Shown here in pieces: positions 1,369 to 25,261 of a stretch of DNA of 64,000 nt; position 1 is the stretch's first letter, and every line of letters starts with the position of its first letter. The stretch is from assembly GCA_963931515.1 (NCBI GenBank), contig OZ007022.1, positions 589,747 to 653,746 of the forward strand. Reading direction: 5' to 3'. This stretch comes from an uncultured Bacilli bacterium (lineage in GTDB: Bacteria > Bacillota_I > Bacilli_A > RF39 > UBA660). The notes beneath the pieces were generated by a model. That model did not search any database, was not told the origin of the DNA, and saw only the letters and a list, made by a program, of their open reading frames with translations. A program made the position numbers and the translations under genes.

Positions 1369-2595
1369 ATATAACATATATTTTTCTAAACCTTTAAACA
1401 TTATATTAACTGCTGCATTATAATCACGAGTGTGCTTTGTATGACATACTGGACATTCCCATTTCCTTAACTTCAAATCTTTTACTTCTTTATTTTGATA
1501 ATCACATATACTGCATATCTGACTGCTTGGATAATATCTATCTATTTGTATTAATCTCTTATTATTCCAGTTAGCTTTATATTTAAGTACTCTGATGATT
1601 TCTGATATTGGGTTTTCATTTAAGCCTTTAGCTACATAGTGATTTTTCTGCATACTTTTTACATCTAAATTCTCAGTTACTATAATGTCATTCTCGTTTA
1701 TTAGTTTATTTGTTATATCATGTATCATATGTTTTCTTGCATTTCTTATTTTTTGATACAATCTTTGGATTTTTAGTTTCATCTTATATCTATTTTTACT
1801 TCCAGACTTACATCTAGATATTCCTCTTTGTAAACCTACCATTCTTTTTGTATTTAGTTTTATTTTGTTTTCTATCTTTTCATTAAATGATGTTACTATT
1901 AAATCTTTTATTCCTAAATCTATACCGATTATACTTGTTGGTACAAATGATGGCCTTATTAATTCTTCTTCGATTAAGACACTTACATAATATTTACCGG
2001 CATCTTTCTTAACTGCTGCACTTTTTAACTCACCAGGTATAATATTTTTATTTCTATATCCTCTTATCTTTACTTCTTTTAATTTTGGTAAAGTTATTGT
2101 TTTGTTTTTTAAATCTAGTTTTATGCTGTTATAATTATTACCTTTATAACTACTTTTAATATTATTAGTTTTATAACTTTCATGAACGCCTTTTGCTTTA
2201 AATCTAGGATAACCGTTTCCATTAAAAAATCTTTTATAAGCATCTTCTAAATTAAATAGACTTGTTCTTAAAGCGCAACTATCTACTTCTTTCAAAAACG
2301 GATATTCTTTTGAAAGTGATGGAATTAATTTTATTTGATCATATACACTTTTACTTTTTCCAGTTTTTTTATATTCTTTAATTTTATCATCCAAAAAATA
2401 ATTATATACAAACCTAGAGCATCCAATAGTTTTATTAATTAACTCTTCTTGCTTTTCAGTTGGATACATTCTAAATACATAGCCTTTTAGTATTTTCATA
2501 TCATCACCTTCAATCTTTGGTGTATTCAGTATATCACAAACATTTGTTCTTGTAAACATTTTTTTTACAAAGCAAATTCCTAGTATATAAAAAAT
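1205..2595 (-). mobile_element. IS200/IS605-family element, TnpB-only (IS1341-like), copy A
   Basis: Ends were defined by comparison with copy B (8513..9903). Identity starts about 37 nt upstream of the tnpB ATG (shared ...ttttttatatactaggaatttgctttgtaaaaaaaATG) and stops at ...ttttgttctat, after which the flanks diverge. No tnpA is present. Confidence 0.8.
1351..2559 (-). CDS. tnpB: TnpB RNA-guided endonuclease (IS605 OrfB family transposase accessory protein)
   Basis: 402 aa. RuvC-like motifs and a C-terminal zinc finger CxxC...CxxC (CSICDY...CPVCHTKHTRDYNAAVNI). Near-identical to ORF 8549..9757. Confidence 0.9.
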   Translation of the reverse strand: MFTRTNVCDILNTPKIEGDDMKILKGYVFRMYPTEKQEELINKTIGCSRFVYNYFLDDKIKEYKKTGKSKSVYDQIKLIPSLSKEYPFLKEVDSCALRTSLFNLEDAYKRFFNGNGYPRFKAKGVHESYKTNNIKSSYKGNNYNSIKLDLKNKTITLPKLKEVKIRGYRNKNIIPGELKSAAVKKDAGKYYVSVLIEEELIRPSFVPTSIIGIDLGIKDLIVTSFNEKIENKIKLNTKRMVGLQRGISRCKSGSKNRYKMKLKIQRLYQKIRNARKHMIHDITNKLINENDIIVTENLDVKSMQKNHYVAKGLNENPISEIIRVLKYKANWNNKRLIQIDRYYPSSQICSICDYQNKEVKDLKLRKWECPVCHTKHTRDYNAAVNIMFKGLEKYMLYLDQSI

Positions 2596-5802: not shown

Positions 5803-6747
5803 ATGCAAGAACAAATGATTTATAATTTACTTAAAGATGAACTTATGATTCAAGATGAACCTTTACGAAAGTTAATTTGGGTTTTGGATAAGAATTTTTA
5901 TACCGATGGTGATTTCAAACAAAATATATTATTAATAGGTGAAAGAGGCAGTGGTAAGACGACTATGCTTAGAGAAACTGCTAAATTAATGGAGATACCA
6001 ATGGGTGAGGTATATAATATGTTTGTACCTAATGGTTTTAATGTCTCTTTATTTTATAACGGTGTTTCACAAATGATGAGTGATAGTGAGTCAGGCAAAG
6101 GTATTTTACTTTTACATGATTTTCAAGATAGTTTTATATATGGTTCTAGTGATGCTTTTAATTCAATGATTGCGTCTGGAACTATTGATTTGGGTGATGG
6201 TGTTTACTGGGATGTTTCTGATATTACTTTTGTTGGTGAGATAGATACTAATAATGTAGATGATTTATTTCCAAGAGAGTGTAATTATTTAGATGATTTA
6301 GAAAATAATAATTTTAAGTCACCTGTTTTAAATATGATTAAAGATTTTTTCTCACAGGATAATGTTGTTTATGAAGATGAAAATGGAAATAGAAATGTTA
6401 ATTTAGGATTTTATAATTATATTACTAAACAAATAAAAGAACGTTTTTTATCAAAAGTATGTTTAGATGTTTTTAACCGAAGAATTTTTATGGATAATAT
6501 GGGAAGTCAAGAGATAATGAAGGCTTTGAAATCACCTCATTCAGCCCTTAATTTATATAAAAACGATTTGACATACGAGTATATTAATTCAGATGAGTTT
6601 GTGAATAAAGTGGTGTATAATATTTTAGAAAGTGGAGAAGGGTTGCACTATTTGATGATGGCGATTGAGGAGGCTATTTCACATGATTGTAAGTATAATC
6701 ATAAGGTATTAAAAAAGGAATCTTTATTAGGTTTAAAGAATAAATGA
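5803..6747 (+). CDS. divergent P-loop ATPase with ClpX/HslU-like Walker A (paralog 1)
   Basis: 314 aa. NILLIGERGSGKTTMLRETAKLMEIPMGEV resembles the AAA+ Walker A region of ClpX/HslU, and the Walker B-like LLLHDF is degenerate. It is clearly paralogous to the next ORF. Confidence 0.6.
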   Translation: MQEQMIYNLLKDELMIQDEPLRKLIWVLDKNFYTDGDFKQNILLIGERGSGKTTMLRETAKLMEIPMGEVYNMFVPNGFNVSLFYNGVSQMMSDSESGKGILLLHDFQDSFIYGSSDAFNSMIASGTIDLGDGVYWDVSDITFVGEIDTNNVDDLFPRECNYLDDLENNNFKSPVLNMIKDFFSQDNVVYEDENGNRNVNLGFYNYITKQIKERFLSKVCLDVFNRRIFMDNMGSQEIMKALKSPHSALNLYKNDLTYEYINSDEFVNKVVYNILESGEGLHYLMMAIEEAISHDCKYNHKVLKKESLLGLKNK

Positions 6748-6762
6748 TTTTTGGGTGATTTT

Positions 6763-7692
6763 ATGGAAGTAAGAGAAGTTTATGATGAATTAAGAAAGTT
6801 ACTTTGTAATCAAGATAAAGCTTTAAAAGAGCTTGTATGGACAATTGCAAAAAATCAAAAGTTATCTAGGCCAAGAAATACTTTATTAGTTGGTGAACTT
6901 GGTAGTGGAAAAACGACGATTGTTCAGCTTACGGCAGCTAAAATGGATATACCGCTTGCAGAAGTATTTGGTTTTTGTACTGAAAGTGGCTTTAATAAGA
7001 ATGTTTTATTTGATGCATTTTGTAAATTATTTATGGAAAATAATAGAGAAGAGTGCAAGGGAATTGTTTTGATTCATGATATGAAAGATTGCTTTTTATA
7101 TGGAGGCTTTTCAGAATTAGAGTCTTTGATTACTTCAGCTTTTTTCACTTATGAAAATAATTTTTTTGATTTATCTCAGGTAATGTTTGTTGGAGAAATT
7201 GATGTAAATGGTTATGAAGATTGCTTTATTCCTAAGCCGATATATACGTTTGAAAATATTGATGATGCTATTTTATCTTTAGATTATAATGGTGATGAAG
7301 TTAAGAGAATAATTCAAGATTTACTTATGACTGATATTTCAACAGATGATATTGAAGAAGGTTATGATAGAAAATATAGAGAGGCAATAAAAAGAGCGTT
7401 TTTATCGGTTGAGTGCAATAAGACTTTTGGCAAAAAGATTTTCATGGATAATATGAAATTTGAAGATATTAAGAAGGCTATAGAATCCCCAATATCAGAA
7501 TTACAGATTTATAGTGATGATTTATGTGAAGAATATATTGCATCACCAGCCTTTATTAATTCAGTCGCACATCATATTAGCGAAAGTACGGTTGGACTTC
7601 ATGATATGGAAGATGCTGTTTTGGATACGGCTATATCTGATAATAAAAGAAAGGTAAAAGTGTTTAAAAATAATTCTTTATTGAAATTATAG
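6763..7692 (+). CDS. divergent P-loop ATPase (paralog 2, tandem duplicate of 5803..6747)
   Basis: About 310 aa. TLLVGELGSGKTTIVQLTAAKMDIPLAEV. Shares architecture and many motifs with the preceding ORF (FMDNMG/FMDNMK, ESPISELQIYSDDL versus KSPHSALNLYKNDL). ATG at 6763, and the ORF track extends to TTG 6751. Confidence 0.6.
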   Translation: MEVREVYDELRKLLCNQDKALKELVWTIAKNQKLSRPRNTLLVGELGSGKTTIVQLTAAKMDIPLAEVFGFCTESGFNKNVLFDAFCKLFMENNREECKGIVLIHDMKDCFLYGGFSELESLITSAFFTYENNFFDLSQVMFVGEIDVNGYEDCFIPKPIYTFENIDDAILSLDYNGDEVKRIIQDLLMTDISTDDIEEGYDRKYREAIKRAFLSVECNKTFGKKIFMDNMKFEDIKKAIESPISELQIYSDDLCEEYIASPAFINSVAHHISESTVGLHDMEDAVLDTAISDNKRKVKVFKNNSLLKL

Positions 7693-7694
7693 TT

Positions 7695-8492
7695 ATGGAA
7701 AAATATAAGGAAATTGAAAGAAGTATTATTAAAAAATTTAGGCCTTCAATTTGGCACAATTTTGTAAAATGTGTGAATGAATATGGATTGATAAATGAAA
7801 ATGACAAGATTGCGGTATGTATAAGTGGTGGTAAAGATTCCTTTTTGCTTGCAAAGTGTTTAGAAGAATTACAAAAACATGGCAAGGTGTAATTTTATTT
7901 AGAGTATATCATTATGAACCCGGGTTATACAGATGAGGTTTTAGTCAAAATTAAGAACAATTTAGATATTTTAAATATTAAGGCTCATATATTTGATAGT
8001 CCTATCTTTAAGATTGTTAGTAAGGAAAAAAATCCATGTTATTTATGTGCGAAAATGCGCAGGGGATATTTATATAGTTATGCACAGAATCTTGGATGTA
8101 ATAAGATAGCTTTAGGTCATCATTTTGACGATGCTTTAGAGACTATTATGATGAATTTAATTTATAATGGAATGTATGCTGGAATGATGCCTAAGATTAA
8201 AAGCGATAATTTTAATGGTATGGAGCTTATAAGACCTCTTTATTTTGTTAAAGAGGAAAGTATTTTAGATTGGTGTAGATATAATAATTTATCGTTTATT
8301 GATTGTGCGTGTAGTGTTACTAAAAAAGATTTAGGTAAGCGAAAAGAAATGAAAAAGTTAGTTAGAACGTTAAAAGAATATTATATTGATGCAGATAGGA
8401 ATATTTTTAATTCTATAAGTAATGTGAAATTAGATAAGGTTATTTCATATTTTGAAGAAGATGAAAAACATAATTTTTTAGATAGATATTAA
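7695..8492 (+). pseudogene. ttcA: TtcA-like tRNA 2-thiocytidine / PP-loop ATPase, interrupted by an in-frame TAA at 7890-7892
   Basis: ORFs 7695..7892 (SGGKDS PP-loop) and 7914..8492 (CxxC pairs) are in the same frame. Their combined translation aligns colinearly with TtcA across the stop (…LQKHGKV*FYLEYIIMNPGYTDEV…). This is either a nonsense mutation, a sequencing error, or re-initiation at M 7914. Confidence 0.55.
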
Positions 8493-8512
8493 CTGTAACG
8501 TATTGGTTATAG

Positions 8513-9903
8513 TTTTTTTATATACTAGGAATTTGCTTTGTAAAAAAAATGTTTACAAGAACAAATGTTTGTGATATACTGAATACACCAAAGATTGAAG
8601 GTGATGATATGAAAATACTAAAAGGCTATGTATTTAGAATGTATCCAACTGAAAAGCAAGAAGAGTTAATTAATAAAACTATTGGATGCTCTAGGTTTGT
8701 ATATAATTATTTTTTGGATGATAAAATTAAAGAATATAAAAAAACTGGAAAAAGTAAAAGTGTATATGATCAAATAAAATTAATTCCATCACTTTCAAAA
8801 GAATATCCGTTTTTGAAAGAAGTAGATAGTTGCGCTTTAAGAACAAGTCTATTTAATTTAGAAGATGCTTATAAAAGATTTTTTAATGGAAACGGTTATC
8901 CTAGATTTAAAGCAAAAGGCGTTCATGAAAGTTATAAAACTAATAATATTAAAAGTAGTTATAAAGGTAATAATTATAACAGCATAAAATTAGATTTAAA
9001 AAATAAAACAATAACTTTACCAAAATTAAAAGAAGTAAAGATAAGAGGATATAGAAATAAAAATATTATACCTGGTGAGTTAAAAAGTGCAGCAGTTAAG
9101 AAAGATGCCGGTAAATATTATGTAAGTGTCTTAACCAACGAAGAATTAATAAGGCCATCATTTGTACCAACAAGTATAATCGGTATAGATTTAGGAATAA
9201 AAGATTTAATAGTAACATCATTTAATGAAAAGATAGAAAACAAAATAAAACTAAATACAAAAAGAATGGTAGGTTTACAAAGAGGAATATCTAGATGTAA
9301 GTCTGGAAGTAAAAATAGATATAAGATGAAACTAAAAATCCAAAGATTGTATCAAAAAATAAGAAATGCAAGAAAACATATGATACATGATATAACAAAT
9401 AAACTAATAAACGAGAATGACATTATAGTAACTGAGAATTTAGATGTAAAAAGTATGCAGAAAAATCACTATGTAGCTAAAGGCTTAAATGAAAACCCAA
9501 TATCAGAAATCATCAGAGTACTTAAATATAAAGCTAACTGGAATAATAAGAGATTAATACAAATAGATAGATATTATCCAAGCAGTCAGATATGCAGTAT
9601 ATGTGATTATCAAAATAAAGAAGCAAAAGATTTGAAGTTAAGGAAATGGGAATGTCCAGTATGTCATACAAAGCACACTCGTGATTATAATGCAGCAGTT
9701 AATATAATGTTTAAAGGTTTAGAAAAATATATGTTATATCTAGATCAATCTATCTAATCAATAAATTTTGGTAAATAAATAATATAATTAGGGTAGCGAC
9801 TATCCGATACTGGTCTATGGAGGAGTCTAAGACTGCTATGAAGTAGAAAGAGCTTACCGTGAGGTAAGCTAATACCAAAATTTATTTTGGTATTTTGTTC
9901 TAT
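8513..9903 (+). mobile_element. IS200/IS605-family element, TnpB-only, copy B (inverted relative to copy A)
   Basis: About 1391 bp. Nearly identical to the reverse complement of 1205..2595. The flanks differ immediately outside these coordinates. Confidence 0.8.
8549..9757 (+). CDS. tnpB: TnpB RNA-guided endonuclease
   Basis: 402 aa. Differs from copy A at only about 3 residues (TNE versus IEE, A versus V). Confidence 0.9.
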   Translation: MFTRTNVCDILNTPKIEGDDMKILKGYVFRMYPTEKQEELINKTIGCSRFVYNYFLDDKIKEYKKTGKSKSVYDQIKLIPSLSKEYPFLKEVDSCALRTSLFNLEDAYKRFFNGNGYPRFKAKGVHESYKTNNIKSSYKGNNYNSIKLDLKNKTITLPKLKEVKIRGYRNKNIIPGELKSAAVKKDAGKYYVSVLTNEELIRPSFVPTSIIGIDLGIKDLIVTSFNEKIENKIKLNTKRMVGLQRGISRCKSGSKNRYKMKLKIQRLYQKIRNARKHMIHDITNKLINENDIIVTENLDVKSMQKNHYVAKGLNENPISEIIRVLKYKANWNNKRLIQIDRYYPSSQICSICDYQNKEAKDLKLRKWECPVCHTKHTRDYNAAVNIMFKGLEKYMLYLDQSI

Positions 9904-9923
9904 ATAAGTTCGGAAAATACTTG
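9740..9923 (+). ncRNA. putative omega-RNA scaffold plus guide of TnpB copy B
   Basis: Conserved right-end sequence ending ...ttttgttctat at 9903. The adjacent unique sequence ataagttcggaaaatacttg would be the guide. Confidence 0.45.
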
Positions 9924-9929
9924 CACGGT

Positions 9930-10290
9930 CAACCAACACTGAATATAAAATCAATATAGGAGTTCAAGAGGAGGTTAAAAACAAATTACAAAAATAAATT
10001 ACAATATTCCATAAGCTACAAGAATGAAACAGCTTAATTATGTAATAAGAGGCTTTATAAATTACTTTAAAATTGTAGATATGAAAGGTGTCATGAGGAA
10101 CATTACTAGTCATTTAAATAGCTGAATAAGATGTTTGCTTTGGAAACAATGGAAAACTTGTAAAGATAGACTAAACCGATTAATAAGACTTGGAATAGGT
10201 AAAGAAAAATTCAAAAGTTTAGCTTTTAGTTGGAAGAGTTATTGGAATAGCTCTATGCCGCTAATCTTACATATAGCAATATCTAAGTAG
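9930..10290 (+). pseudogene. remnant of a group II intron-encoded reverse transcriptase/maturase (C-terminal about 100 aa, one internal stop)
   Basis: Frame translation gives ...RMKQLNYVIRGFINYFKIVDMKGVMRNITSHLNS*IRCLLWKQWKTCKDRLNRLIRLGIGKEKFKSLAFSWKSYWNSSMPLILHIAISK*. This matches the conserved maturase/X-domain tail of LtrA-like IEPs (LNPIIRGWANYFK...WKQWKKPKTR...LIRLG...SPILHRALSN). No RT domain or intron domain V was seen. Confidence 0.6.
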
Positions 10291-10429
10291 GAGATTAAAA
10301 GTAAATTGATTAATTTTTTCTACTGGATTCTCTATATGAAAAAATTATATATCTATGATTTTTAATTATATTATTATACTTTAAAAAAAACAAATAGTAC
10401 GGTATAATATAGTGGAAATGGAGGGTATT

Positions 10430-11011
10430 ATGGCTAAAGAAAGAGAAGTTACGATTCTTAATATTGATGAGAAGGGTTTTGTAAGCAAGTTATTGAATAA
10501 TGGAGCAGTAAAAAAAGATGAATTTTTGCAAAGAAGATATACATATGACTTTAATCCGATATTGCCTAATAAATGGATTAGGCTTAGGACAAATGGTAAA
10601 AAAACGACTTTGACAATTAAGGAAATCAAAGATAAAACGGCTATAGATGGGACTATGGAGTTAGAAACAGTTGTGGGTGATTTTGATGTTATGAATGATA
10701 TTTTAAAGGAACTTGGATATAGATATCGTAATTATCAAGAAAATTACCGAATTATTTATTCTCTGGATAATGTAGAAATTTCTATTGATTCTTGGCCTTT
10801 GATACCAACATATGCCGAAATAGAGGGTAAAACAAATGAAGATGTTGTTATGGCTTTAGAAAAGCTTGGATATACTTTGGATGATGCAACTACTTTAGAT
10901 GTGACATCTATTTATAATGAAATATATGGTATTGATTTACTTAAAATAAAAGAATTAAAGTTTGAAGGGAGTAATCATGAAAGTATGCTACAATATAACA
11001 AGCAAATGTAA
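10430..11011 (+). CDS. CYTH-like (triphosphate tunnel metalloenzyme / CyaB-like) domain protein
   Basis: About 193 aa. Acidic E-x-E motifs near both termini (KEREV... and YAEIEGK), and the size and pattern are typical of CYTH. A -10 box tataat lies at 10403-10408 and the RBS ggaggg before ATG 10430. The ORF track lists an upstream GTG at 10412. Confidence 0.5.
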   Translation: MAKEREVTILNIDEKGFVSKLLNNGAVKKDEFLQRRYTYDFNPILPNKWIRLRTNGKKTTLTIKEIKDKTAIDGTMELETVVGDFDVMNDILKELGYRYRNYQENYRIIYSLDNVEISIDSWPLIPTYAEIEGKTNEDVVMALEKLGYTLDDATTLDVTSIYNEIYGIDLLKIKELKFEGSNHESMLQYNKQM

Positions 11012-11714
11012 TAGAAATTGCAGATATTGTTTTAAGTTTAATAGGGAAGATTTGACTTTAGAAGAAAATGAAAGAGTTTTAGATAATTTATTTAAACTAG
11101 GTGTGAAAAAGATTTCATGGACTGGTGGCGAACCTTTTTTATATAAAGATTTGCCTCATTTATTAAAGAAAAGTAAAGAATATGGAATTATTAATTCTGT
11201 TAATACCAATTTAACGACCGTTGATGTGGATAATTTGGAAGAAAAAATTCAAAATGTTGACCAGCTAATTATTTCTTTAGATTTTATTTCTGATGATTTG
11301 AATGAAAAATATGGTATAGGAAAAGATTATTATGCTCATGTTTCTAAAATTTTAAAAAAAATAAAACAAATTAATCCTGATATAATATTACAATTAAATA
11401 CAGTATTATTTAATGGCAATATTAATTTTATGGATGAGCTTTATGAGGAAATATGCAAGTATGATATAGATTATTGGAAGATAATTAGGTTTTTACCAAT
11501 TAGGGGCAAAGCTTATAAGGAGAAAGATAATTTATCAATAACAGACGAACAATTTGATGAATTTACTAGAAATTTTAAAAGTCGAAAACAGAATTTTGAA
11601 ATTATTATTCATGGTTTAAAAGAAATGGAAAGAAAACATATTATTGTTTTAAGTTCAGGTAAACTTATTTATAGTGAAAATGGTAAGGATGAAGAAATTA
11701 AGTCATTAATTTAA
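10977..11714 (+). CDS. viperin-like radical SAM enzyme (prokaryotic viperin homolog)
   Basis: About 245 aa. The CNRNCRYCF radical-SAM cluster sits in a VxYxxTxxCNxxCxxCF context, and a [13 protein letters not shown] SAM-binding motif is present. Colinear matches to viperin continue through the protein ([22 protein letters not shown] versus [39 protein letters not shown] versus [26 protein letters not shown]...[15 protein letters not shown] versus WKVFQCLLIEG...VIGDEEFERFLERHK). The start overlaps the end of the CYTH gene. Confidence 0.7.
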   Translation: [245 protein letters not shown]

Positions 11715-11729
11715 GGAAAGGATGCAAAA

Positions 11730-12623
11730 ATGGATAAGAATATCAATTTAAATTTATATCGAATTTTTTATGAAGTTGCACAATATCATAGTATTTCAGA
11801 TGCTGCAAAAAATATGTATTTGTCACAGCCAGCAATAAGTAAAGCAATTAAAAATTTAGAAAGTGAACTTAATGCAATGCTGTTTTATAGAACCTTAAAT
11901 GGTATTATTTTAACTGATAAAGGTAAGGAACTATATGGGTTAGTAGAAGAAGCTTTAGGAAATTTTAGACAAGCAGAGAAGAAGATGCTGGAAAATAAGA
12001 ATTTAGAAAAGGGTTCTTTATCTATTGGTGTAAGATCTAATGTGGCTTCATTTTATTTACTTGATAAGATTGCGACTTTTCATGAAAAATATAATAAGAT
12101 TGATATTGTTATTATTGATAGGCCTAGTAGTGAGTTACTTAGAATGCTTTCTAATAATGAACTTGATTTTGTTTTGGATTCTGTTTCGGCAAAAGATGAA
12201 TTAGATGGTTTTGATGTTAAACCTTTAGATACTTTTACGCATACTTTTATAGTTTTGCCCGATTTAAATATTTTACCTAAAAGAGAAAAATATCATTTAA
12301 AAGATTTAGAATCACTACCGTTAATATTGCCGGTTTCTCATAGTTCACATAGACAATATTTAAATAATTTAGCTAAAGAAAACAATACTGTTTTCAATAA
12401 TGTTCTTTCGATAGAAACAAGCGAACTTATTTATAGTATGGTAAAAAAAGGTCTTGGAATAGGTTATATTTTGAGAGATATGGTTAAGAGTGATATTGAA
12501 TGTGGTAATTTAAAAGAAATAAAAATATATGAGGAACTTCCTGAAATATCTTTAAATTTAATATGTAAAGAAAGAAATTTAACTGAAGCACCTAGACATT
12601 TTATAGATGAATATTTAAAATAA
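11730..12623 (+). CDS. LysR-family transcriptional regulator
   Basis: 297 aa. N-terminal HTH (ISDAAKNMYLSQPAISKAIKNLE) and a C-terminal substrate-binding domain. Confidence 0.85.
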   Translation: MDKNINLNLYRIFYEVAQYHSISDAAKNMYLSQPAISKAIKNLESELNAMLFYRTLNGIILTDKGKELYGLVEEALGNFRQAEKKMLENKNLEKGSLSIGVRSNVASFYLLDKIATFHEKYNKIDIVIIDRPSSELLRMLSNNELDFVLDSVSAKDELDGFDVKPLDTFTHTFIVLPDLNILPKREKYHLKDLESLPLILPVSHSSHRQYLNNLAKENNTVFNNVLSIETSELIYSMVKKGLGIGYILRDMVKSDIECGNLKEIKIYEELPEISLNLICKERNLTEAPRHFIDEYLK

Positions 12624-12787
12624 CATGAAAAAATGTTATTTTTTTATTACTTTTTTTGATAGCAATTACTAGAATGTATATAGTTTTAAAAACTTTTTAT
12701 ATGAATGATTATTAGTTATATTTGTATAAATTATTGGTATTTTTCTGGCAGTTTAATTTGTGATACATTTAAATTGGAGGAGGAAAT

Positions 12788-14266
12788 ATGTATAAGGTGA
12801 TTGCAATTAGTGGTTATTCTGGAAGTGGAAAAACTACTATAAGTGAAGAGCTATTAAAAAGGGGTAATGAGTTAGTTTACTTTGATTTTGGTTTTTTATT
12901 TAGACCACTTACTTATTATTTAATAAACGAATTATCTTTAGATGAAGACGGTATTAGAGAGTTTGTTTTAAGTGGAAAATTGCAGCAACAGATTGATCTT
13001 ACTTATAAAATTACCTGTAATAAAGTGGAAGTAGGAATTAATGGTAATTTTTATAGTTATGAGGTTTTAAACACCCCCAAAATGAATATGGATACAGTAA
13101 TGGTTGGATCAATTGTCGGTGATTCTTTAAATGATGCTTTAAGAAGTATAGTTGATGATTTAAAATGTGAAAGTAATGTTTTGCTTAATGCGAGAAGGCC
13201 AGTTGTTGCTTATCCAGAAGTGGATTATCATATTTTTTTAGAAACTGATTTTGATGAGAGAGTTAAAAGAAAAATGTTGATGAATGGTGAGAATTATGAA
13301 ATTACTTTAAAAAAGTTAAAAGAACGTGATCAAAAAGAGAAGGATAGCGGTTTTTGGAAAAAGTATGATTTTACCCAAACTATCGATACTACAAATTTAT
13401 CTAAGAATGATGTCTTAGAGAGAGTACTTGGGATTTTAAATGATGATTTTGCACACTTTAATAATTTGACATTGATTTTAGGCTCTTATATGTGTAATAA
13501 AAACTGTCCATATTGTATTGCTAAAAATAATCAAAAGTTTTCTACCTGCGATAATTTAGAATCTTTGGATGAAATTTTAAATGAACTTATGGAAAATAAT
13601 ATAAAATTTAAAAGATTTGTTCTCAGTGGAAATGGGGAACCATCATTTTATTCTTTAGAAGATTTAGAATTAATCAAAGAATGTTTAATCAAATATAGAA
13701 ATTTGTTTGAAATAGTTAGGGTACATTCTTCGGGTAATATATTTAGTGAGGAAGATAAATTTAACCTTTTTAATCTTACTGATTTACCGCTAGAGTTTGA
13801 AATTCTCAGAGTAGCATTAAATTCTGATGTTGATATGAAGGTACTTGGATATAGTGAGGATTATTTAAAGAGTTTATTATTTAGAAACGGTAATATAAAA
13901 TGCGATATTGCTTTGACGGATTATTTAGAATGTTCTGATCTGTCATTACAGTTAAATGATTTTTTAAAAAACAACCCATCAATTAAGAAGGTGAGATTCA
14001 AAAGGCTATTAGTTGGCGATAATGATACAACAAAGCAGGCAAAATGGGTTAAAGAACATTCACTTGATGAAGATGCTATTCAAAAGGTTATTTTAGAACT
14101 TGGTTTAACTTTAAAAGATGATATTTATCAATCAGATGATAGGAAAATTCTTTATAAAACAAGCGGAGATTATGATTTTGATTATGTAATAAATGATGGA
14201 AAGCTTCAAAATTATAAGAATGAAATAAGTAGGGTTAAAGTGCTTAGAAGGAAGCTAGGTGGTTAG
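12788..14266 (+). CDS. fusion protein: N-terminal cytidylate-kinase-like NMP kinase plus C-terminal viperin-like radical SAM domain
   Basis: 492 aa. The N-terminal domain has a P-loop IAISGYSGSGKTTI, FDFGFLFR (compare Cmk LDTGAMYR), and an NMP-binding/LID segment aligning with Cmk (NARRPVVAYPEVDYHIFLETDFDERVKRKM...LKERDQKEKDSG). The C-terminal domain has CNKNCPYC, a RFVLSGNGEPSF SAM-binding motif, and looser matches to the viperin core (LEFEILRVALNSDVDMKVLGYS). Confidence 0.65.
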   Translation: MYKVIAISGYSGSGKTTISEELLKRGNELVYFDFGFLFRPLTYYLINELSLDEDGIREFVLSGKLQQQIDLTYKITCNKVEVGINGNFYSYEVLNTPKMNMDTVMVGSIVGDSLNDALRSIVDDLKCESNVLLNARRPVVAYPEVDYHIFLETDFDERVKRKMLMNGENYEITLKKLKERDQKEKDSGFWKKYDFTQTIDTTNLSKNDVLERVLGILNDDFAHFNNLTLILGSYMCNKNCPYCIAKNNQKFSTCDNLESLDEILNELMENNIKFKRFVLSGNGEPSFYSLEDLELIKECLIKYRNLFEIVRVHSSGNIFSEEDKFNLFNLTDLPLEFEILRVALNSDVDMKVLGYSEDYLKSLLFRNGNIKCDIALTDYLECSDLSLQLNDFLKNNPSIKKVRFKRLLVGDNDTTKQAKWVKEHSLDEDAIQKVILELGLTLKDDIYQSDDRKILYKTSGDYDFDYVINDGKLQNYKNEISRVKVLRRKLGG

Positions 14267-14267
14267 G

Positions 14268-14978
14268 ATGAGGCAGATACTTAAATTTATTGGAACGGGT
14301 GGAGCTTTTTCTACAAAATATGTAAATAATTCTGCTTACTATTATTTAAAAAATGATGAAATACTTTTGTTTGACTCAGGAGAAACTGTTTTTCATGAAA
14401 TTTTAAAGTTAAATATTATAAATGAAAATATTAAAAGGGTTGATATTATTATTACTCATTTTCACAGTGACCATGTTGGTAGTTTAGGTAGTTTGGTGTT
14501 TTATTTAAGATTTAAAAAGGTAAGGGAAGTGAATATAATATTTCCGATTAAGAGAGTACCTTATATGTTATTAAATATATATGGTATTGATGAAAACCTT
14601 TATAATGTAAAAACACCTAAGGAGATAGAAGGATATTATATTAAAGAATATGAGCAATTACATGGCGATGTTAGTGATAATGGTAAAATTATACCAATGC
14701 CAAGTTATGGCTATCATGTAATTAGCGATAATGATAATTTCTTTTACAGTGGCGATACGTGCACCATAAGTGATATAATATTAGAGAAGTTTAAGAGTAA
14801 GAAAATTAAAGTTATGTATCACGAAGTGGCAACAGATGGTTATAAATCACATATGCAATTAGATGATTTGGCTAAATTAATTGAATTTGAAGATAGAAAG
14901 AGAATTTTCTGTATGCATATGGGTGATAATGTTGATGTTTTAAAAATTAAAAATTTAGGATTTGAAAGTGTGAGGTAA
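14268..14978 (+). CDS. metallo-beta-lactamase-fold hydrolase
   Basis: About 236 aa. HxHxDH motif (ITHFHSDHVGS) and downstream His/Asp ligands. Overlaps the stop of the preceding gene, so likely co-transcribed. Confidence 0.75.
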   Translation: MRQILKFIGTGGAFSTKYVNNSAYYYLKNDEILLFDSGETVFHEILKLNIINENIKRVDIIITHFHSDHVGSLGSLVFYLRFKKVREVNIIFPIKRVPYMLLNIYGIDENLYNVKTPKEIEGYYIKEYEQLHGDVSDNGKIIPMPSYGYHVISDNDNFFYSGDTCTISDIILEKFKSKKIKVMYHEVATDGYKSHMQLDDLAKLIEFEDRKRIFCMHMGDNVDVLKIKNLGFESVR

Positions 14979-14980
14979 TT

Positions 14981-15568
14981 ATGAAAGAAGAATTAGAAAT
15001 TTGTGTAAGGTCTTTGGTACCTTTTAATGAACTTTATGATGATATGATTAAAAAAGGTTTTCACGAACAAGAAAATTTTATTTTAAATGATATTTATATG
15101 GTTAAGGATGATGTGGAAGTATTTTTGGAAAACGAAGAAGTTATTTTTTCTAATTATGTTTTAATTAGAGAAACTGTTGGAAAAAGAAAAATGCTTGTTT
15201 TAAAGCATAAAGAAGTAAATGAAAATGGAGAGATAGTAAAACAAGAGTCAGTTAAATGCCCAATTACTGATATTCATAAGGCTTATGATTTTATGAAAGC
15301 TATCGGCTATAAAAAATTATTTGAAATAAGTGATCATAATGTTTTAATGAGTAATGGAAAAAACGAAATTTATATTCAAGATGTTAAAGGTATTGGAACT
15401 TATGTAGAGATGGAACAAAAGAATTTACTTTTAGAAAATAATAATGGCAATACGATTGATGAGATGAAAAATATTTTAAAGGAATATGATTTAAAAATTG
15501 ATGTAAGTGATTATTTTGTTAGAAAAGCCTATGATGCTTTAAAAGAAAATGTAGATTTAAGAAAATAA
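14981..15568 (+). CDS. second CYTH-like domain protein
   Basis: 195 aa. N-terminal EELEI and C-terminal YVEMEQK acidic motifs. Same size class as 10430..11011, but a different sequence. Confidence 0.45.
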   Translation: MKEELEICVRSLVPFNELYDDMIKKGFHEQENFILNDIYMVKDDVEVFLENEEVIFSNYVLIRETVGKRKMLVLKHKEVNENGEIVKQESVKCPITDIHKAYDFMKAIGYKKLFEISDHNVLMSNGKNEIYIQDVKGIGTYVEMEQKNLLLENNNGNTIDEMKNILKEYDLKIDVSDYFVRKAYDALKENVDLRK

Positions 15569-15804
15569 TGTGAAGTTTTGTAAAGATGCTAGAAAAAAAG
15601 ATATATATATGATATAATTTAATTGTCTAAAAGAAGAATACCGCTATGAAAAACCTACTAAGTATAACGATTGGGAATCTAATTCACTGGTGGTGTAGAA
15701 TACTTTAATTTATTAAAGGATCCTAAAGCTGGTGATGTGATGCCCACCTGGGAGATCAGGTTTTTAATTCGTTAAGGTTTCTCTTTTGGACTTTGCTTAT
15801 TTAT

Positions 15805-16020: not shown

Positions 16021-19000
16021 ATGAAAGTAAAAAACTGTCTAGGGGTGGCATGTTTACTACTAGCACTTTGTGTCAGCCTATTTTTAAATTTTGGAGTTAA
16101 CCATGATAATCCTAGTTTAAAAATGGCTTCAAATGAGAGCAATATAGCTCTTAATGGCAACCAGATTAACACAATATTTAATTCTAACCAGAATGGCATA
16201 CAGAAGTTAAGTACTTCACATTTTGTTCGTGAAGTAGGAAACTATAATTTGGCAGATTATTTGAATGAAAATAGTTATTTTACTATTGACGGCACAAAAG
16301 TTGATGAAGACTTTAAGGATACTGTCGAATATGGAGATGTTATTGACATTCATTTAGAGTGGTCTTTGCCAAATACAACAGATTGGACCACAGAAAATAC
16401 TTTTAGTTATGAACTTCCAGCTGGATTTACATTTACTAATGTCCAAAATGGAGTGATAAGAAATGGGGCCGAGGCTGTCGGTGTTTATACTATTTCTGGA
16501 AATCAAGTAACTATTAGGTATACTGATGAAGAGTTTTTAAAATTAAGTAATATTACTGGTACTTTAAATGTATCAGGTGAGATTACTGAAAGTGCTATAG
16601 GTGGTGGCGATGGAGGTAGGATTGATTTAGAAATTCCTGGTGTTGGAACAGTTATAATCAATGTTAAACCAACTAGTGCTTTAAGAATTCATAAATCAGT
16701 TGAAAAGATTGATACTGATACTTATGAGTTTAAAGTTGAAGTAACTGCGATAACTGATAATACCAATGTGGTCATTACTGATTCAATGGGTCAGTATTTA
16801 GAGCTTATCACTGATTCATTTAAGATTACAAAGGCTGATAGTAATCAAAATGTTCAAGATATGACTGATAAAATTAAACCTACTATTAATGGAACAACTG
16901 GCTTTGTTTATACAATTGATAAGTTAAATAAAGGTGATGTCGTAACCATAACTTATAGAGCCAATGTTTTAGATGGTGGATTTATTAGTAGCTCTACTGA
17001 TAATGATTTAAGAAATACAGCAAGAGTTAAAAGTGATGAACTTCCAAATGAAATTACAGCTACTGCGTTAGTTAGTACTTATAAAGCAGATGTATCTAAA
17101 GATGGTAGATATAATCTTAGTGATTATACTGCAGTTTGGACTATTACAGTAAAACCGGGAGAAAAAGGTGTAACGTTAAAAGACGTTATTGCTGATGGTC
17201 AAGAAATTACAGGTGATATAACAGTTACCGAAAGTGATGATAATGGTTCTAGTTATCATGATTCTGAATTAACTATTACAGCTGATGAGTTACAAAAAGG
17301 TTATACTTTTGCAGAAGATGCGACAGGACAAAAAGTATACAAAATTACATTTAAAACAAAAGCAACTGGTGAACAAACTGAGTTATATAACGAAGCTACA
17401 ATTTATGTTGGGGAAAATCATAGTGTATCTGATGATGCGACTGTTGGTCTTGTTCCTGGAGTAACTATTTCTAAATATGTTAAAAGTGCAGATGACAGGG
17501 AAGGAGTTATTCACTGGAATACAAAGGTAACAATACCTAATATCGATGGAAAACAAAAAAAGGTTTCCTTTAAAGATGTTTTAGGTGATGGCTTAACATT
17601 AGATGTAACTACTGTAAAAGTTAATGATACTTCTATTAATGAAACTACAAATCCTAAGCTAGAATATAATGCAAGTAAGACAGAATTTACAATTGATTTT
17701 GGTAATATTGAACCAGGTAAAGAGTTAAATATTTCTTATGATACGACATTTGATAACAGTGAATCAAAAACATTTTATAATACGTCTACTGTTACTGTAG
17801 ATGGTGAAGGAAAATCATCTACAGGTAAATATGAGTATAATAAGAAAGACAATTATATTCAAAAGTATTTGAATAATTTTAGCGATAACTTTAGTAAAAC
17901 AGGTATTGCTAGATGGGAGATTAAAATTGATAGGTTACCTAAAGATGTTAAGGATACTTATGTAACAGATACTATTCCTGATGGTATGGAATATGTGGAA
18001 GGCTCTGCAAAATTAGTGTTAAATTATAATCCTTATACAACTTATAAACTTGAACCAAAACTTGAAGATGGTAAGTTAATATTTGATTTAGATGATTATA
18101 TTGATGAGCTTAGTGCGAATAGTGCTGGAGCATCTATTTTCTACGATAGCAGGTTAACTGATATTTTTGCTGATCAAAAGACTTATACTAACAAGGCTAA
18201 TATTACAATTAATGATTATACATATCCAGATGTAGAAGCATCTATTACAGGTAAAGTTACTCAGTTACTTGATAAAACAGCAGTCTATAATACTTATACG
18301 GCACCAGAAGTAGAATATACTATAAAGGTTAATGAGGGTAAGGCTGATATTGTTAAAGATTCTGACACTTTAGTTTTGGATGATGAAATGGGTTCAGCTT
18401 TAGAATTTATTAGAGGAAGTTTAAAGATTAATGGTGAAGCTGCAGATCCTGATAGTTATGAATGGAATCAAGAGACTCATATGTTAACGCTTCATGTTCC
18501 TGACAGTGAATCATTAATAATCACATATAAGGCTAGAGTTACATTAAGTGCTGGCGAAGAGTTAAACGAAGATAATGCTTTTAATAAAGTTAATTTATTT
18601 GTTTATGATGAAAATTCCGCTGAAAGTAAATGGATTTTGAAAGGTGAAGTTTTAGAAAGCTCAGCTACTTCTTCAGGAAATTCACAAATGATTTATGTAT
18701 ATAAATATAAAGATGGTGATAAGAATACACCACTTGCTGATGTTGAGTTTAATTTATATGAATTAGGCTTTACTGGTAGTGGTAATACTTTTGAGTTAAC
18801 TGGTGAAGAAAATTTAGTTTCTACATTAAAAACTAAAGATGATGGATATGCTAGTTATAGTGGTATTAATTATGATAGTGTATATAAATTAGTTGAGTCT
18901 AAAACTGTAGATGGTTATATTTTAGATACGACGGTATATTACTTTGTATATCCAGGAAATGATGGAATTGAATATCCAGATAGTATTGAACAATATTATC

Positions 19001-20136
19001 AAGTAAAAACTTTTGAGGTTGGTAATGAATATTCAATGATTAATATAAATGTTACTAAGGTTTGGAATGATAATGACTATGAAAATAGACCTGATTCAAT
19101 TACAGTTTATTTAAAACGCAATAATGATTATGTTTATGAAAATGGTCAAAAGAAATCAGTTACTTTGAGTAGTAGTAATAATTGGCAAGCTTCTTTTGAA
19201 AGATTAGCTAAATATGATGAAAATCATAATCGTTATGATTATACTATAGAGGAAGCGGTACCAGAACATTATAATGAAGAGTATAGTAGTGAAAGTACAG
19301 TTGATGATAAAAACTACACTATTACTAATACCCTTGAAGATAGTAATTTGACTATTAGTAAGGTTGTAGCTGGTAATGCTGGTGAGACTGATAGATACTT
19401 TACTTTTAAAGTTATTTTAACAGATAAAAATGGCAATCCTTTAGAAGAGTCTTTCCATTATACTGGTTCTAAAGAGGGCTTTATAAAATCTGGTGATACT
19501 ATTAAGTTAAAACATGGTGAATCGATTACGATTAATGGACTTCCTTACGGAACTTTATATGAAGTTACAGAGTTAGAGGCTAATAGTGACAGATATGAAA
19601 CTACAGCTACTAATGATAAAGGAAAAATTACTTTTGACGAAAACAAGGTAGTATTTACGAATACGAAAAATGAAGGAAGTTTAACTATCGATAAAACTGT
19701 TGGTGGTAATAGTGGTGAGACTGATAGATACTTTAATTTTAAAGTTATATTATACGATGAAAATGGTGAAGTTTTAGAAGGTGAATATAAATACATTGGA
19801 AGTAAAACTGGCACTATTAAATCTGGTGATATAATTAAATTAAAACATGGTGAGTCTATTACGATTATTGGTTTACCAGTAGGAGCAAGCTATAAAGTTA
19901 CCGAACTTGAAGCAGATAGTGATGGTTATAAGACATCAGTTACTAATGATGGTGGAGTTATTGGCTTAGAAGGAAATGTTAGTTCATTTATGAATTACAA
20001 AGATGTGTTTGAAAAACCATATCAGAAAGCTAATATTCCACAAACTGGTGGTAGTGATAATACGTCACTTTATGGAATTTTAACTATAGCTTTTGGAATG
20101 CTCAGTGTTTATTTATTAAAAAGAAAACATGCTTAG
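16021..20136 (+). CDS. sortase-anchored surface adhesin with Cna-B-type and SpaA-like isopeptide domains
   Basis: 1371 aa. N-terminal signal peptide. A Cna-B-type domain (VTKVWNDNDYENRPDSITVYLKRN...). Two tandem roughly 110-aa modules (..GETDRYFTFKVIL...IKLKHGESITI..). A C-terminal sorting signal IPQTGG plus a hydrophobic stretch and KRKHA. A promoter (ttgaat, 16 nt spacer, tataat) and RBS gaggag lie upstream. Confidence 0.85.
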   Translation: MKVKNCLGVACLLLALCVSLFLNFGVNHDNPSLKMASNESNIALNGNQINTIFNSNQNGIQKLSTSHFVREVGNYNLADYLNENSYFTIDGTKVDEDFKDTVEYGDVIDIHLEWSLPNTTDWTTENTFSYELPAGFTFTNVQNGVIRNGAEAVGVYTISGNQVTIRYTDEEFLKLSNITGTLNVSGEITESAIGGGDGGRIDLEIPGVGTVIINVKPTSALRIHKSVEKIDTDTYEFKVEVTAITDNTNVVITDSMGQYLELITDSFKITKADSNQNVQDMTDKIKPTINGTTGFVYTIDKLNKGDVVTITYRANVLDGGFISSSTDNDLRNTARVKSDELPNEITATALVSTYKADVSKDGRYNLSDYTAVWTITVKPGEKGVTLKDVIADGQEITGDITVTESDDNGSSYHDSELTITADELQKGYTFAEDATGQKVYKITFKTKATGEQTELYNEATIYVGENHSVSDDATVGLVPGVTISKYVKSADDREGVIHWNTKVTIPNIDGKQKKVSFKDVLGDGLTLDVTTVKVNDTSINETTNPKLEYNASKTEFTIDFGNIEPGKELNISYDTTFDNSESKTFYNTSTVTVDGEGKSSTGKYEYNKKDNYIQKYLNNFSDNFSKTGIARWEIKIDRLPKDVKDTYVTDTIPDGMEYVEGSAKLVLNYNPYTTYKLEPKLEDGKLIFDLDDYIDELSANSAGASIFYDSRLTDIFADQKTYTNKANITINDYTYPDVEASITGKVTQLLDKTAVYNTYTAPEVEYTIKVNEGKADIVKDSDTLVLDDEMGSALEFIRGSLKINGEAADPDSYEWNQETHMLTLHVPDSESLIITYKARVTLSAGEELNEDNAFNKVNLFVYDENSAESKWILKGEVLESSATSSGNSQMIYVYKYKDGDKNTPLADVEFNLYELGFTGSGNTFELTGEENLVSTLKTKDDGYASYSGINYDSVYKLVESKTVDGYILDTTVYYFVYPGNDGIEYPDSIEQYYQVKTFEVGNEYSMININVTKVWNDNDYENRPDSITVYLKRNNDYVYENGQKKSVTLSSSNNWQASFERLAKYDENHNRYDYTIEEAVPEHYNEEYSSESTVDDKNYTITNTLEDSNLTISKVVAGNAGETDRYFTFKVILTDKNGNPLEESFHYTGSKEGFIKSGDTIKLKHGESITINGLPYGTLYEVTELEANSDRYETTATNDKGKITFDENKVVFTNTKNEGSLTIDKTVGGNSGETDRYFNFKVILYDENGEVLEGEYKYIGSKTGTIKSGDIIKLKHGESITIIGLPVGASYKVTELEADSDGYKTSVTNDGGVIGLEGNVSSFMNYKDVFEKPYQKANIPQTGGSDNTSLYGILTIAFGMLSVYLLKRKHA

Positions 20137-20803
20137 AAAAGTACCTGTAATATTATGTTTAGTTATTTGTCTAATATTTTTAAGTTTATTTACTTGGGAG
20201 TCTTTAGACAAGAAAGAAGGGGAGACATTTTATAGAAATGTGCTCCCCTCAACTAATATAAAGGATATAAATAAATTAGAAAATGAGTATGAAGGAGCTA
20301 CTGGTTATATTGATATTCCTAATACAAGCATTAGTTATCCAATTATGCAAGGTGAGGATAATTCATATTATTTAAAACATTTACCAAATGGTGATAGAAA
20401 TAAAATGGGATCTATATTTTTAGATTACCGAAACAATGGGTTTAATGATAAGAATACGATTATATATGGTCATAATTTTAATAACGGTACAATGTTTAGT
20501 GATTTACTTAATTATAAGTCTTTTGAATTTTATAAGAATCATTCAAATTATAAGATTTATACTAGTGATAAAGTAATTGAGGTTGCTATTTTTGCTGTTT
20601 ATATAGCGGATGCTACTAAGGATGAGTTACCAATTAATTTTGAGTCTACTGATTTTGAAGATTATTTAGATATGGTATTGGAAAGTAATTTGATAAATAG
20701 TGAAGTTAGTATTGATAGTGAAGATAATTTAATTACTTTATGTACGTGTAGTAATGGTTCTTGGAAAAATAGACTAATAGTTAGTGGTAAAGTTTTAAAT
20801 TAA
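20129..20803 (+). CDS. sortase (class B/C-like) dedicated to the upstream adhesin
   Basis: 224 aa. N-terminal TM anchor, catalytic His (IIYGHNF), TLCTC active-site Cys motif, and a conserved Arg near the C-terminus. Its start overlaps the adhesin stop. Confidence 0.8.
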   Translation: MLRKVPVILCLVICLIFLSLFTWESLDKKEGETFYRNVLPSTNIKDINKLENEYEGATGYIDIPNTSISYPIMQGEDNSYYLKHLPNGDRNKMGSIFLDYRNNGFNDKNTIIYGHNFNNGTMFSDLLNYKSFEFYKNHSNYKIYTSDKVIEVAIFAVYIADATKDELPINFESTDFEDYLDMVLESNLINSEVSIDSEDNLITLCTCSNGSWKNRLIVSGKVLN

Positions 20804-22915: not shown

Positions 22916-23416
22916 TTAGTTATTTTTGACAGAAAGAATTATTTCTTTATCCATACTAATTTTATGATATTTGATATGACATTTATCAAATAAAGTACGT
23001 GATGCGATATTATTTTCTGATTTTGCATATTTATCATTTAAGTAGATGACTTCTTTAATGCCTGATTGAATGATTAATTTAGCGCATTCATTGCATGGAA
23101 ATAAATCGACATATAATTTGGCATTTTCTAAGTCTTTTTTTGAGCCACGGTAATTTAATATGGCGTTTAGTTCAGCGTGGCAGACGTATGGGTATTTAGT
23201 GTTTAGATTTTCTCCTTCGCGGTTCCATGGAAAATCATCGTCGTGAAAACCATTAGGTGCGCCATTATAACCGATTGAAAGGATTCTATTATCATCACTG
23301 ACAATGCATGCGCCAACTCTGGTTGATGGGTCTTTACTTCTTAAGGCGCTTAATTCAGTGATAGCCATAAAATATTCGTCCCAAGTTAAATAATCTTCTC
23401 TTTTTTTTGAATTCAT
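22916..23416 (-). CDS. dCMP deaminase (ComEB-like cytidine/deoxycytidylate deaminase)
   Basis: 166 aa. Zinc-binding HAE and PCxxC motifs ([17 protein letters not shown]). Confidence 0.85.
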
Positions 23417-25116: not shown

Positions 25117-25261
25117 TTTAAAAATACCTCCAACTAGATGACAAACAAACCAATGACATATATAGTACACTTAAAATTAAAAAAAGCAAATTAATAAATA
25201 TTATAAGTAATTTAATAACAAGCAAAGGTGAACTTTGCTTGTAACATTTATTATATTATTT

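Follow-up and report, generated by a model that had tools for sequence, protein, structure and literature searches.

Six co-oriented open reading frames (ORFs), here called O1 to O6, lie on the + strand at 10430–15568 of a 64,000-nucleotide (nt) stretch of DNA from an uncultured Bacilli bacterium (contig OZ007022.1, positions 589,747 to 653,746; hereafter the window). They form two units, each of which combines a viperin-fold radical S-adenosylmethionine (SAM) enzyme with a CYTH or CYTH-like protein. We rate the operon as a new and conserved arrangement of several enzymes around viperin-type nucleotide chemistry, one of them from a rare, new radical SAM family. From its gene content, the folds of its enzymes, its conservation, the modular pairing of its genes and its dispensability, we propose tentatively, and with a little less than even confidence, that it is an accessory, LysR-controlled operon that modifies a pyrimidine nucleotide, most likely a cytidine nucleotide, and then trims its phosphates. 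The product of the cluster would probably be a modified cytidine-derived molecule.

Gene starts were refined with public gene calls on identical contigs (L001–L003) and with homologue lengths. The first 35 nt of O2 lie within O1, O2 and O3 are 15 nt apart, and O4–O5 and O5–O6 are separated by 1 and 2 nt, respectively; a 164-nt gap between O3 and O4 splits the operon into unit 1 (O1-O2-O3) and unit 2 (O4-O5-O6). An earlier sequence-only reading of this DNA had described six tightly packed co-oriented genes, which holds within the two blocks and fails at the gap between them. It had also called CYTH, LysR and metallo-β-lactamase (MBL) proteins and a fusion of a cytidylate kinase-like (Cmk) domain to a radical SAM domain. 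Hidden Markov model (HMM) searches bore out these calls, with O6 recognised as CYTH-like only via TIGR00318 and PH1819. The G+C content of the window is ~ 27%. The nearest genomes come from uncultured gut Bacilli; their chromosomes measure ~ 1.5 Mb, and they go under the labels Candidatus Coprosoma, Candidatus Ventrenecus or "uncultured Bacilli".

The same six genes occur in the same order in at least eight divergent loci, and the order is conserved in about ten species of uncultured gut Bacilli, with 53–98% protein identity. By tblastn across all fetched loci, the full order was found in L004, L016, L017, L018, L020, L023/24 and L029; L028 has the halves in exchanged order, and L019 and L022 have unit 2 alone. 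This recurrence in divergent loci argues that the cluster is not a product of chance, and since all six ORFs are intact across the divergence, selection appears to act on the whole set. A word-indexed search of 5.8 billion proteins returned ~ 63 clusters for O4 and ~ 62 for O2, none of them named, and we found no name in any source for any of the six proteins.

The best NCBIfam family for O2 is viperin_w_prok (NF038283) at 128.9 bits, compared with 66.5 bits for MoaA. The radical SAM proteins did not fall cleanly into the QueE, NrdG or MoaA families, an outcome that would have spoken against the earlier viperin reading. O2 matched the PADLOC prokaryotic viperin (pVip) models at 6.5e-39 over ~ 87% of the model, and its top nine matches in a sequence search of the PDB were all viperins or viperin-like enzymes. 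The predicted structure (predicted local distance difference test score, pLDDT, of 94) had viperins as its top 18 Foldseek matches, with template modelling (TM) scores of 0.84–0.87 at 23–27% identity, and the radical SAM motifs CNRNCRYC and GGEPF are invariant in alignments of the family. Viperin is thus the closest characterised enzyme, as had been claimed from the sequence, but O2 misses the curated viperin cutoff of 180 bits, whereas the control, the true pVip P0153, which had come up as a distant match, scored 281.9. The nearest outgroups of O2 (P0126 and P0141–P0148) score no better to viperin than to MoaA.

The NF038283 match to O2 ends at model position 250 of 281. We aligned O2 and O4b, the C-terminal radical SAM domain of O4, with pVip P0153 and human viperin, by sequence. 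The human sequence agrees with the landmarks C83/C87/C90 and the C-terminal W361. The viperin C-terminal tail (SILD...GxDE..FLKRGGxY...W), which closes the barrel, is present in P0153 and human viperin and absent from the O2 and O4b families, both of which end just past the β-hairpin. In the mouse viperin–CTP structures, K119, K219, R244 and K246 (human numbering) are reported to be basic residues that bind the triphosphate, and we take Y301 to be the mechanistic viperin tyrosine. By alignment, O2 retains K119, N221 and K246 and has Q or E at K219, Y, C, K or R at R244, and H at Y301. O4b, though more divergent overall, retains all four basic positions and a nearby Tyr. According to published work, all viperins share a barrel with a C-terminal extension, and the conserved tyrosine is the proposed donor of a proton and an electron in the viperin mechanism (PMC9642334). 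The apparent changes at two basic residues and the tyrosine mean that synthesis of 3′-deoxy-3′,4′-didehydro nucleoside triphosphates (ddhNTPs) by O2 is not to be simply assumed. The pocket of O2 looks remodelled, despite its being the more viperin-like of the two, and the kinase-fused O4b, with its basic residues and Tyr retained, looks equipped for a triphosphate substrate.

The kinase domain of O4 matches Cmk (PF02224, 1e-12) above the cutoff and has a complete Cmk fold with an intact P-loop. Its score against the equivalog model TIGR00017 is 49.9 bits, compared with a cutoff of 135.55. The GRD motif of Cmk is replaced by ARR, which is invariant across the whole O4 family (consensus NARRP), and the nucleotide specificity of this kinase may differ from that of Cmk. 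O4b is scarcely recognised by sequence HMMs, with NF038283 giving 18 bits for O4 over the cluster motif only, and no match of O4 to the PADLOC pVip-kinase fusion model (PDLC02905) was found. Its motifs CNKNCPYC and GNGEP are invariant in family alignments, and its best structural match is, as for O2, a viperin, with the viperin-type partial (βα)6 barrel. Profile–profile comparison of the O2 and O4b families gave 96.5% probability (E 8.8e-10) over the full length, which makes them distant paralogues with a viperin-type fold. An exhaustive HMMER search with the O4b profile in 1.84 billion representatives recovered 313 sequences at E ≤ 1e-3, of which 84 and 47 remained at E ≤ 1e-10 and E ≤ 1e-30, respectively; the next relatives were not canonical viperins, and 31 loci among 185,579 species genomes encode O4b relatives. 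O4b is a rare unnamed radical SAM family, and neither O2 nor O4b is a canonical prokaryotic viperin.

These results bear directly on whether the operon is a classical pVip defence system, in which O2 and/or O4b would make ddhCTP from Cmk-fed CTP and so end phage transcripts, with the CYTH and MBL proteins limiting self-toxicity or recycling. The operon shares with pVip the CxxxCxxC and GGEP motifs and the viperin-type barrel, the pVip match and NCBIfam ranking of O2, the known linkage or fusion of viperins to nucleoside-monophosphate kinases of the CMPK2 or Cmk type (including PDLC02905), and a sporadic, dispensable distribution. We nevertheless consider this explanation unlikely. Both enzymes lie below the curated cutoff (128.9 bits for O2, as against 282 for the true pVip P0153) and lack the tail, by alignment His replaces the mechanistic tyrosine in the O2 family, O4b is undetectable by viperin HMMs, and there are two paralogous enzymes in one operon with constant CYTH and phosphoesterase partners, a LysR regulator and no defence-island context. 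In textbook pVip, moreover, the triphosphate itself is the weapon, and a lasting pairing with a triphosphatase would destroy it. The PADLOC models, which had been suggested as a check, matched O2, and O4 gave no match to the fusion model. Given the strength of the O2 match, automatic tools would probably label it a viperin.

O1 is assigned to the CYTH family by its match to PF01928 (27 bits; cutoff 23.2). Its conserved residues, ExEx[T/R] (K in L071) and then invariant KWIRLR, K, ExE, R, E, D and ExE, follow the usual CYTH tunnel pattern. The closest solved relative is the Sulfolobus triphosphatase SaTTM, at 58.6 bits with the O1 profile, whereas the class IV cyclase 3n0y scored 19.5 bits. SaTTM is a proven triphosphatase that does not form cyclic nucleotides, and CYTH proteins annotated as cyclases are mostly phosphatases (PMC8233210). 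The class IV CyaB model TIGR00318 (cyaB) is the best NCBIfam model for both O1 and O6, and neither reached its cutoff of 57.95 bits (43.2 and 41.2 bits, respectively). O6 had no Pfam match; its likeness to CYTH proteins comes only via TIGR00318, over the full length, and a weak match to PH1819 (29 bits). It conserves ExE...R...K.K...ExE, with an N-terminal ExEx[C/T]. The earlier calling of CYTH and MBL proteins around the radical SAM genes is supported, with a triphosphatase and not a cyclase as the nearest solved relative of O1. O1 keeps 52–66% identity in loci where the other detected cluster proteins drop to ~ 32–47%.

O5 has an HxHxDH-type metal motif (HFHSDH) and scored 40.7 bits against Lactamase_B and 46.1 bits against Apyc1 (PF23023; cutoff 50), the latter over the N-terminal part only. 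Its matches in the PDB were 7fct (96 bits, full length) and the Apyc1 structures 7u2r (67 bits, full length), 7t28 (64 bits) and 7u2s (44 bits). RNase Z models match the N-terminal part of O5, and the RNase Z chain 1y44, of 320 amino acids (aa), aligns over the first ~ 80 residues only. Enzymes of the Apyc1 family convert cyclic mononucleotides to 5′-nucleoside monophosphates (5′-NMPs) (PMC9117128). That the product of an O5-type phosphodiesterase is the substrate of the kinase counts in favour of the pathway that we propose, and it would also fit a cyclic-nucleotide loop, in which one or both CYTH proteins, as class IV-type cyclases, make a cyclic and possibly modified pyrimidine nucleotide, the Apyc1-like MBL hydrolyses it to the 5′-NMP, Cmk re-phosphorylates this and LysR serves as the receptor. 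The rank of cyaB for O1 and O6 and the placing of O5 nearest to class II cyclic-mononucleotide phosphodiesterases including Apyc1 are in line with such a loop. We regard it as very unlikely, however, because both CYTH proteins fall under the cyaB cutoff, the class IV cyclases reach only 19 bits with the O1 profile, PHP, HD, NUDIX and HAD enzymes, which are not specific to cyclic nucleotides, replace the MBL elsewhere, and the loop has no effector protein and leaves two radical SAM enzymes without a role.

O3 carries an HTH_1 domain (PF00126, 65 bits) and a LysR substrate-binding domain (PF03466, 103 bits). Its linkage to O2 holds in every full cluster, and L071, which lacks O4 and O5, shows it too. 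The intergenic region 12624–12787 contains blocks that are invariant across eight aligned loci despite the 53–98% identity of the proteins, and holds a weak hairpin and T-run after O3, a promoter-like site at 12656–12684 and conserved A/T-rich motifs. LysR presumably acts on this region. The promoter-like site upstream of unit 1 is weak evidence, since there are fewer such sites than in shuffled sequence.

The pairing of radical SAM and CYTH genes recurs outside the full operon, and does so in both of the paralogous families. A stand-alone O4b-like gene adjoins an O1-like CYTH gene (52% identity) in L033, L036 and L043, and L047 combines O4b-like and CYTH proteins with a thymidylate-synthase-like protein and Fic. 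A CYTH-Cmk fusion is followed by a radical SAM gene in L049, and L071 has an O2-like protein, LysR and two CYTH proteins. The phosphoesterase varies: it is MBL in the window, PHP in L027, L031 and L032, HD with a HAD-like hydrolase in L043, and NUDIX in L008–L010 and L026. Further fusions join an O2-like domain to a dGTPase-type triphosphohydrolase (P0150) and O4b-like domains to weak nucleoside-deoxyribosyltransferase-like regions (P0216 and P0217). This theme points to radical chemistry on a phosphorylated nucleoside, presumably combined with enzymes that handle tri-, di- or monophosphates. The Cmk-radical SAM and CYTH-Cmk fusions link the parts to one another, and the constant phosphate-cleaving partners suggest that the end product is dephosphorylated, in the manner of nucleoside-antibiotic pathways, or else that a toxic intermediate is tightly controlled.

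Within the clade of the window the operon has a fixed site, between hisS-aspS, two paralogues of ~ 313 aa and ttcA on one side and 6S RNA, rnhB and cvpA on the other (L016, L017, L020 and L021). In L050, where O6 is 92.7% identical, and in L066–L069, O1–O5 are missing and an intact O6 directly follows ttcA. Similarity to the window resumes at 14927 in L066 and L067, where a remnant of 54 nt from the 3′ end of O5 persists, and at 14972 in L050, so O1–O5 were deleted, not inserted, apparently with different end points. The reverse event, insertion of O1–O5 beside a resident O6, was rejected because of this remnant and of the joint occurrence of O4, O5 and O6 in unrelated loci. At 90% identity the O6 cluster has 133 members, compared with 60–69 for O2–O4, which fits O6 outliving the other genes. 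The fixed site and the deletions indicate that the operon is vertically inherited in the clade, dispensable and repeatedly lost. The operon is accessory, not core, and the conserved gene set has the accessory distribution that the sequence-only reading had expected.

That reading had also placed the cluster in a defence-island setting beside IS605 and group II intron debris, and this part did not survive. IS605-type TnpB genes are present at 8549–9757 (+) and 1351–2559 (-). The first of these adjoins the operon and is missing from that site in L016, L017 and L020, which makes it a strain-level insertion and rules out IS605 as the marker of a mobile island. No Rfam family was found in the 650 nt between this TnpB gene and O1, and no group II intron matched at the Rfam gathering score in the whole window or at E ≤ 1 over 8400–10450. 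PADLOC and Pfam scans of 42 flanking proteins in seven loci revealed no cluster of defence genes, with one protein per PADLOC family. In the clade of the window the flanks are aspS, ttcA, 6S RNA and rnhB, and those of other lineages differ, with housekeeping genes in the majority (Mur ligases, tRNA synthetases, MutS, UvrC, exonuclease VII and pyruvate phosphate dikinase), so a defence-island context was rejected. A second variable insert at this site, a SpaA/Cna_B surface protein (1371 aa) with a sortase at 16021–20803 (+), is present in the window, L016, L066 and L067 and absent between O6 and rnhB in L017, L021 and L050.

A housekeeping role in nucleotide salvage or in RNA or tRNA modification or repair, with the CYTH protein as an RNA triphosphatase beside the ttcA neighbour, the kinase and an RNase Z-like MBL, might be read from the constant position amid housekeeping genes, with ttcA on one side and 6S RNA/rnhB on the other, the RNase Z matches of O5 and the reduced host genomes of ~ 1.5 Mb, but it is highly improbable given the clean deletion of O1–O5 in several close relatives, the rarity of O4b (84 of 1.84e9 proteins at E ≤ 1e-10), the variable flanks between lineages, the full-length alignment of O5 to small cyclic-nucleotide phosphodiesterases and a kinase with a complete Cmk fold.

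Table 1. Features of the operon, in window coordinates.
Feature	Position	Strand	Remarks
Promoter-like site TTTAAA-17-TATAAT, 5′ of unit 1	10380..10408	+	consensus scan only
O1, CYTH / triphosphate-tunnel metalloenzyme, 193 aa	10430..11011	+	longest ORF from 10412; public calls start at ATG 10430
O2, viperin-like radical SAM, 245 aa	10977..11714	+	homologues put the true start at ATG 10977, not 10962
O3, LysR-type transcriptional regulator, 297 aa	11730..12623	+	
Intergenic region between unit 1 and unit 2, 164 nt	12624..12787	+	conserved
O4 N-terminal domain, Cmk-fold nucleoside-monophosphate kinase, residues 1–225	12788..13462	+	intact P-loop; ARR for GRD
O4 C-terminal domain (O4b), viperin-type-fold radical SAM, residues 226–492	13463..14266	+	CNKNCPYC, GNGEP
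O5, MBL-fold class II phosphodiesterase-like enzyme, 236 aa	14268..14978	+	HFHSDH motif
O6, divergent CYTH-like protein, 195 aa	14981..15568	+	TIGR00318 below cutoff

In the pathway that we propose, the Cmk domain would phosphorylate cytidine monophosphate (CMP) or a CMP-like monophosphate and so feed the fused radical SAM domain. O4b would then start a 5′-deoxyadenosyl-radical reaction on the sugar, either a viperin-like dehydration or a related elimination, while O2, with its altered pocket (Lys to Gln or Glu, a variable residue for Arg and Tyr to His), may act on a related and probably less phosphorylated substrate. The CYTH enzymes O1 and O6 would act on the product triphosphate or on released inorganic triphosphate, and O5, or its PHP, HD, NUDIX or HAD counterpart, would remove or open the remaining phosphate ester. 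The end result could be a modified nucleoside, a monophosphate or a cyclic intermediate, beyond a mere chain-terminating nucleoside triphosphate (NTP). O3, transcribed with unit 1, might sense a metabolite of the pathway and control unit 2 via the 164-nt intergenic region. The role of the product would most likely be conditional, either antiviral, as it is with viperins, or one of antagonism through a nucleoside analogue.

Several points weigh against this pathway. The substrate and product are guesses, and the viperin residues were mapped by sequence alignment. With ARR in place of GRD, the cytidine specificity of the Cmk domain is not assured. O6 survives alone and may therefore have a separate role, the cluster encodes no transporter for an exported product, and a LysR regulator with uniformly housekeeping flanks would be unusual for an anti-phage system. 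The interchangeable phosphoesterases could equally mean self-protection from a toxic NTP analogue.

We also considered, and hold to be rather improbable, that the tail-less, CYTH-paired mini-viperins O2 and O4b run radical chemistry other than 3′-dehydration, for example elimination on the 5′ side from a C4′ radical. Such an elimination could free inorganic triphosphate and a 4′,5′-didehydro nucleoside, and inorganic triphosphate is the classic CYTH substrate. If this were true, gut commensals would be the source of a new class of nucleoside antimetabolites or antivirals, made by an unrecognised two-enzyme module that is also found with PHP, HD, NUDIX and dGTPase partners.

The sequence-only reading had not recognised this gene combination as a described system, and we likewise found no description in the literature of viperin with CYTH, CYTH with radical SAM, a Cmk-radical SAM fusion or viperin with a triphosphatase as combined here. 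The closest parallels each share one part of it. Shomar et al. noted viperins of eukaryotes that carry a fused "triphosphatase or cyclase domain" (10.1101/2023.09.13.557418). As here, a viperin-type enzyme is joined to a triphosphatase- or cyclase-type domain, but those fusions involve canonical eukaryotic viperins and were given no function, whereas the arrangement described here is operonic and recurrent and consists of separate bacterial genes for CYTH proteins and truncated radical SAM enzymes. The Ophion system, directed against jumbo phages, comprises the viperin-related radical SAM protein OpnA, the PHP protein OpnB and the phosphoribosyltransferase (PRTase) OpnC (10.1101/2025.09.30.679545). 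By its description, it likewise pairs a pVip-related yet phylogenetically distinct radical SAM enzyme with a phosphoesterase, and the clostridial variants of our module carry PHP. It differs in having a PRTase, which is missing here, in lacking CYTH, Cmk and LysR, and in its occurrence in Gammaproteobacteria. The Pycsar/Apyc1 system has in common with the operon the cytidine-nucleotide theme and the MBL class II phosphodiesterase group to which Apyc1 and, by its closest matches, probably also O5 belong. The operon has no Pycsar-type cyclase or effector, O5 misses the Apyc1 cutoff, and its CYTH proteins are closer to triphosphatases. In the oxetanocin A pathway, the B12-dependent radical SAM enzyme OxsB and the HD phosphohydrolase OxsA, plasmid-borne in Bacillus, reportedly act on deoxyadenosine phosphates. 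There too, radical SAM remodelling of the sugar of a phosphorylated nucleoside is followed by a phosphohydrolase that removes phosphates and so releases a nucleoside-analogue antimetabolite, but the radical SAM enzyme is of the cobalamin-dependent class, the substrate is a purine, and neither CYTH nor kinase takes part.

More distant relatives of the radical SAM genes have neighbourhoods of their own. A 559-aa Cmk-radical SAM fusion in L008–L010 and L026 (about 8001–10937), with ~ 40–45% identity across the two domains, is accompanied by NUDIX and Endonuclease_NS_2 proteins; this module sits inside the dcw cluster of a Clostridium-like metagenome-assembled genome (MAG), between the PBP/PASTA genes and murE. 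In the Clostridium MAG of L031, a gene for a 220-aa RelA/SpoT-type small synthetase (7189–7848) lies directly upstream of the Cmk-radical SAM gene. A more distant O4b-like subfamily (331 aa, 33–36% identity) occurs in L037, L039 and L042 (8001–9660). The next gene in L037 and L042 encodes a ~ 230-aa protein that has a class II tRNA-synthetase core domain, and the same assignment is made in L039 from size and position alone; genes for a small MMR_HSR1-type GTPase and a Der/EngA-type GTPase flank the pair in L037. L011–L013 (8001–10674) represent a phage-like contig with many small unannotated ORFs and a 462-aa protein that resembles O4b in its N-terminal half (29% identity). Next to it lies a gene for an adenylosuccinate-synthetase homologue, a possible sign of a viral pathway of nucleotide modification. 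A phage origin of the operon enzymes was considered and rejected: among 50,697 phage records, tblastn with O4b and O2 found only weak, partial matches of no more than 32% identity, a BFVD fold search returned only generic kinase and radical SAM matches, and PHROGs gave nothing specific.

Around the operon, a 6S RNA gene lies directly 3′ of O6 at 15621–15796 (+) (RF00013, 53.6 bits, above the gathering score), preceded by a promoter-like site at 15590–15618 and with a terminator-like hairpin at 15746–15761. The ttcA-like gene (PF01171) of the window is split into ORFs of 65 aa (7695–7892) and 192 aa (7914–8492), both on the + strand; it is whole (264–265 aa) in L050, L066 and L067, and the split reflects a frameshift, a pseudogene or an assembly error. 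The tandem ~ 313-aa paralogues at 5803–6747 and 6751–7692 (+), kept here throughout the clade, share ~ 35% identity and have no Pfam match, and the second contains the P-loop-like GELGSGKTT. A 427-aa ORF at 23887–25170 (-), which by eye we take to be an IS30-like transposase, lies between a dCMP deaminase gene (22916–23416) and lspA (25432–25905), two genes that adjoin each other in L017, L021 and L050.

Viperin is among the few immune enzymes common to animals and bacteria, with products that serve as leads towards antiviral nucleosides. The operon shows that in uncultured gut bacteria the viperin scaffold was cut down, duplicated and repeatedly tied to triphosphate-tunnel enzymes and phosphoesterases, and an automatic "pVip" label on O2 would hide both this larger system and the changes in the active site. 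If the products differ from ddhNTPs, they would widen the nucleotide chemistry of radical SAM enzymes and might provide new nucleoside analogues. The CYTH family is widespread and, to our knowledge, its physiological substrates are largely unknown; the pairing with radical SAM enzymes would give CYTH proteins a concrete metabolic partner.

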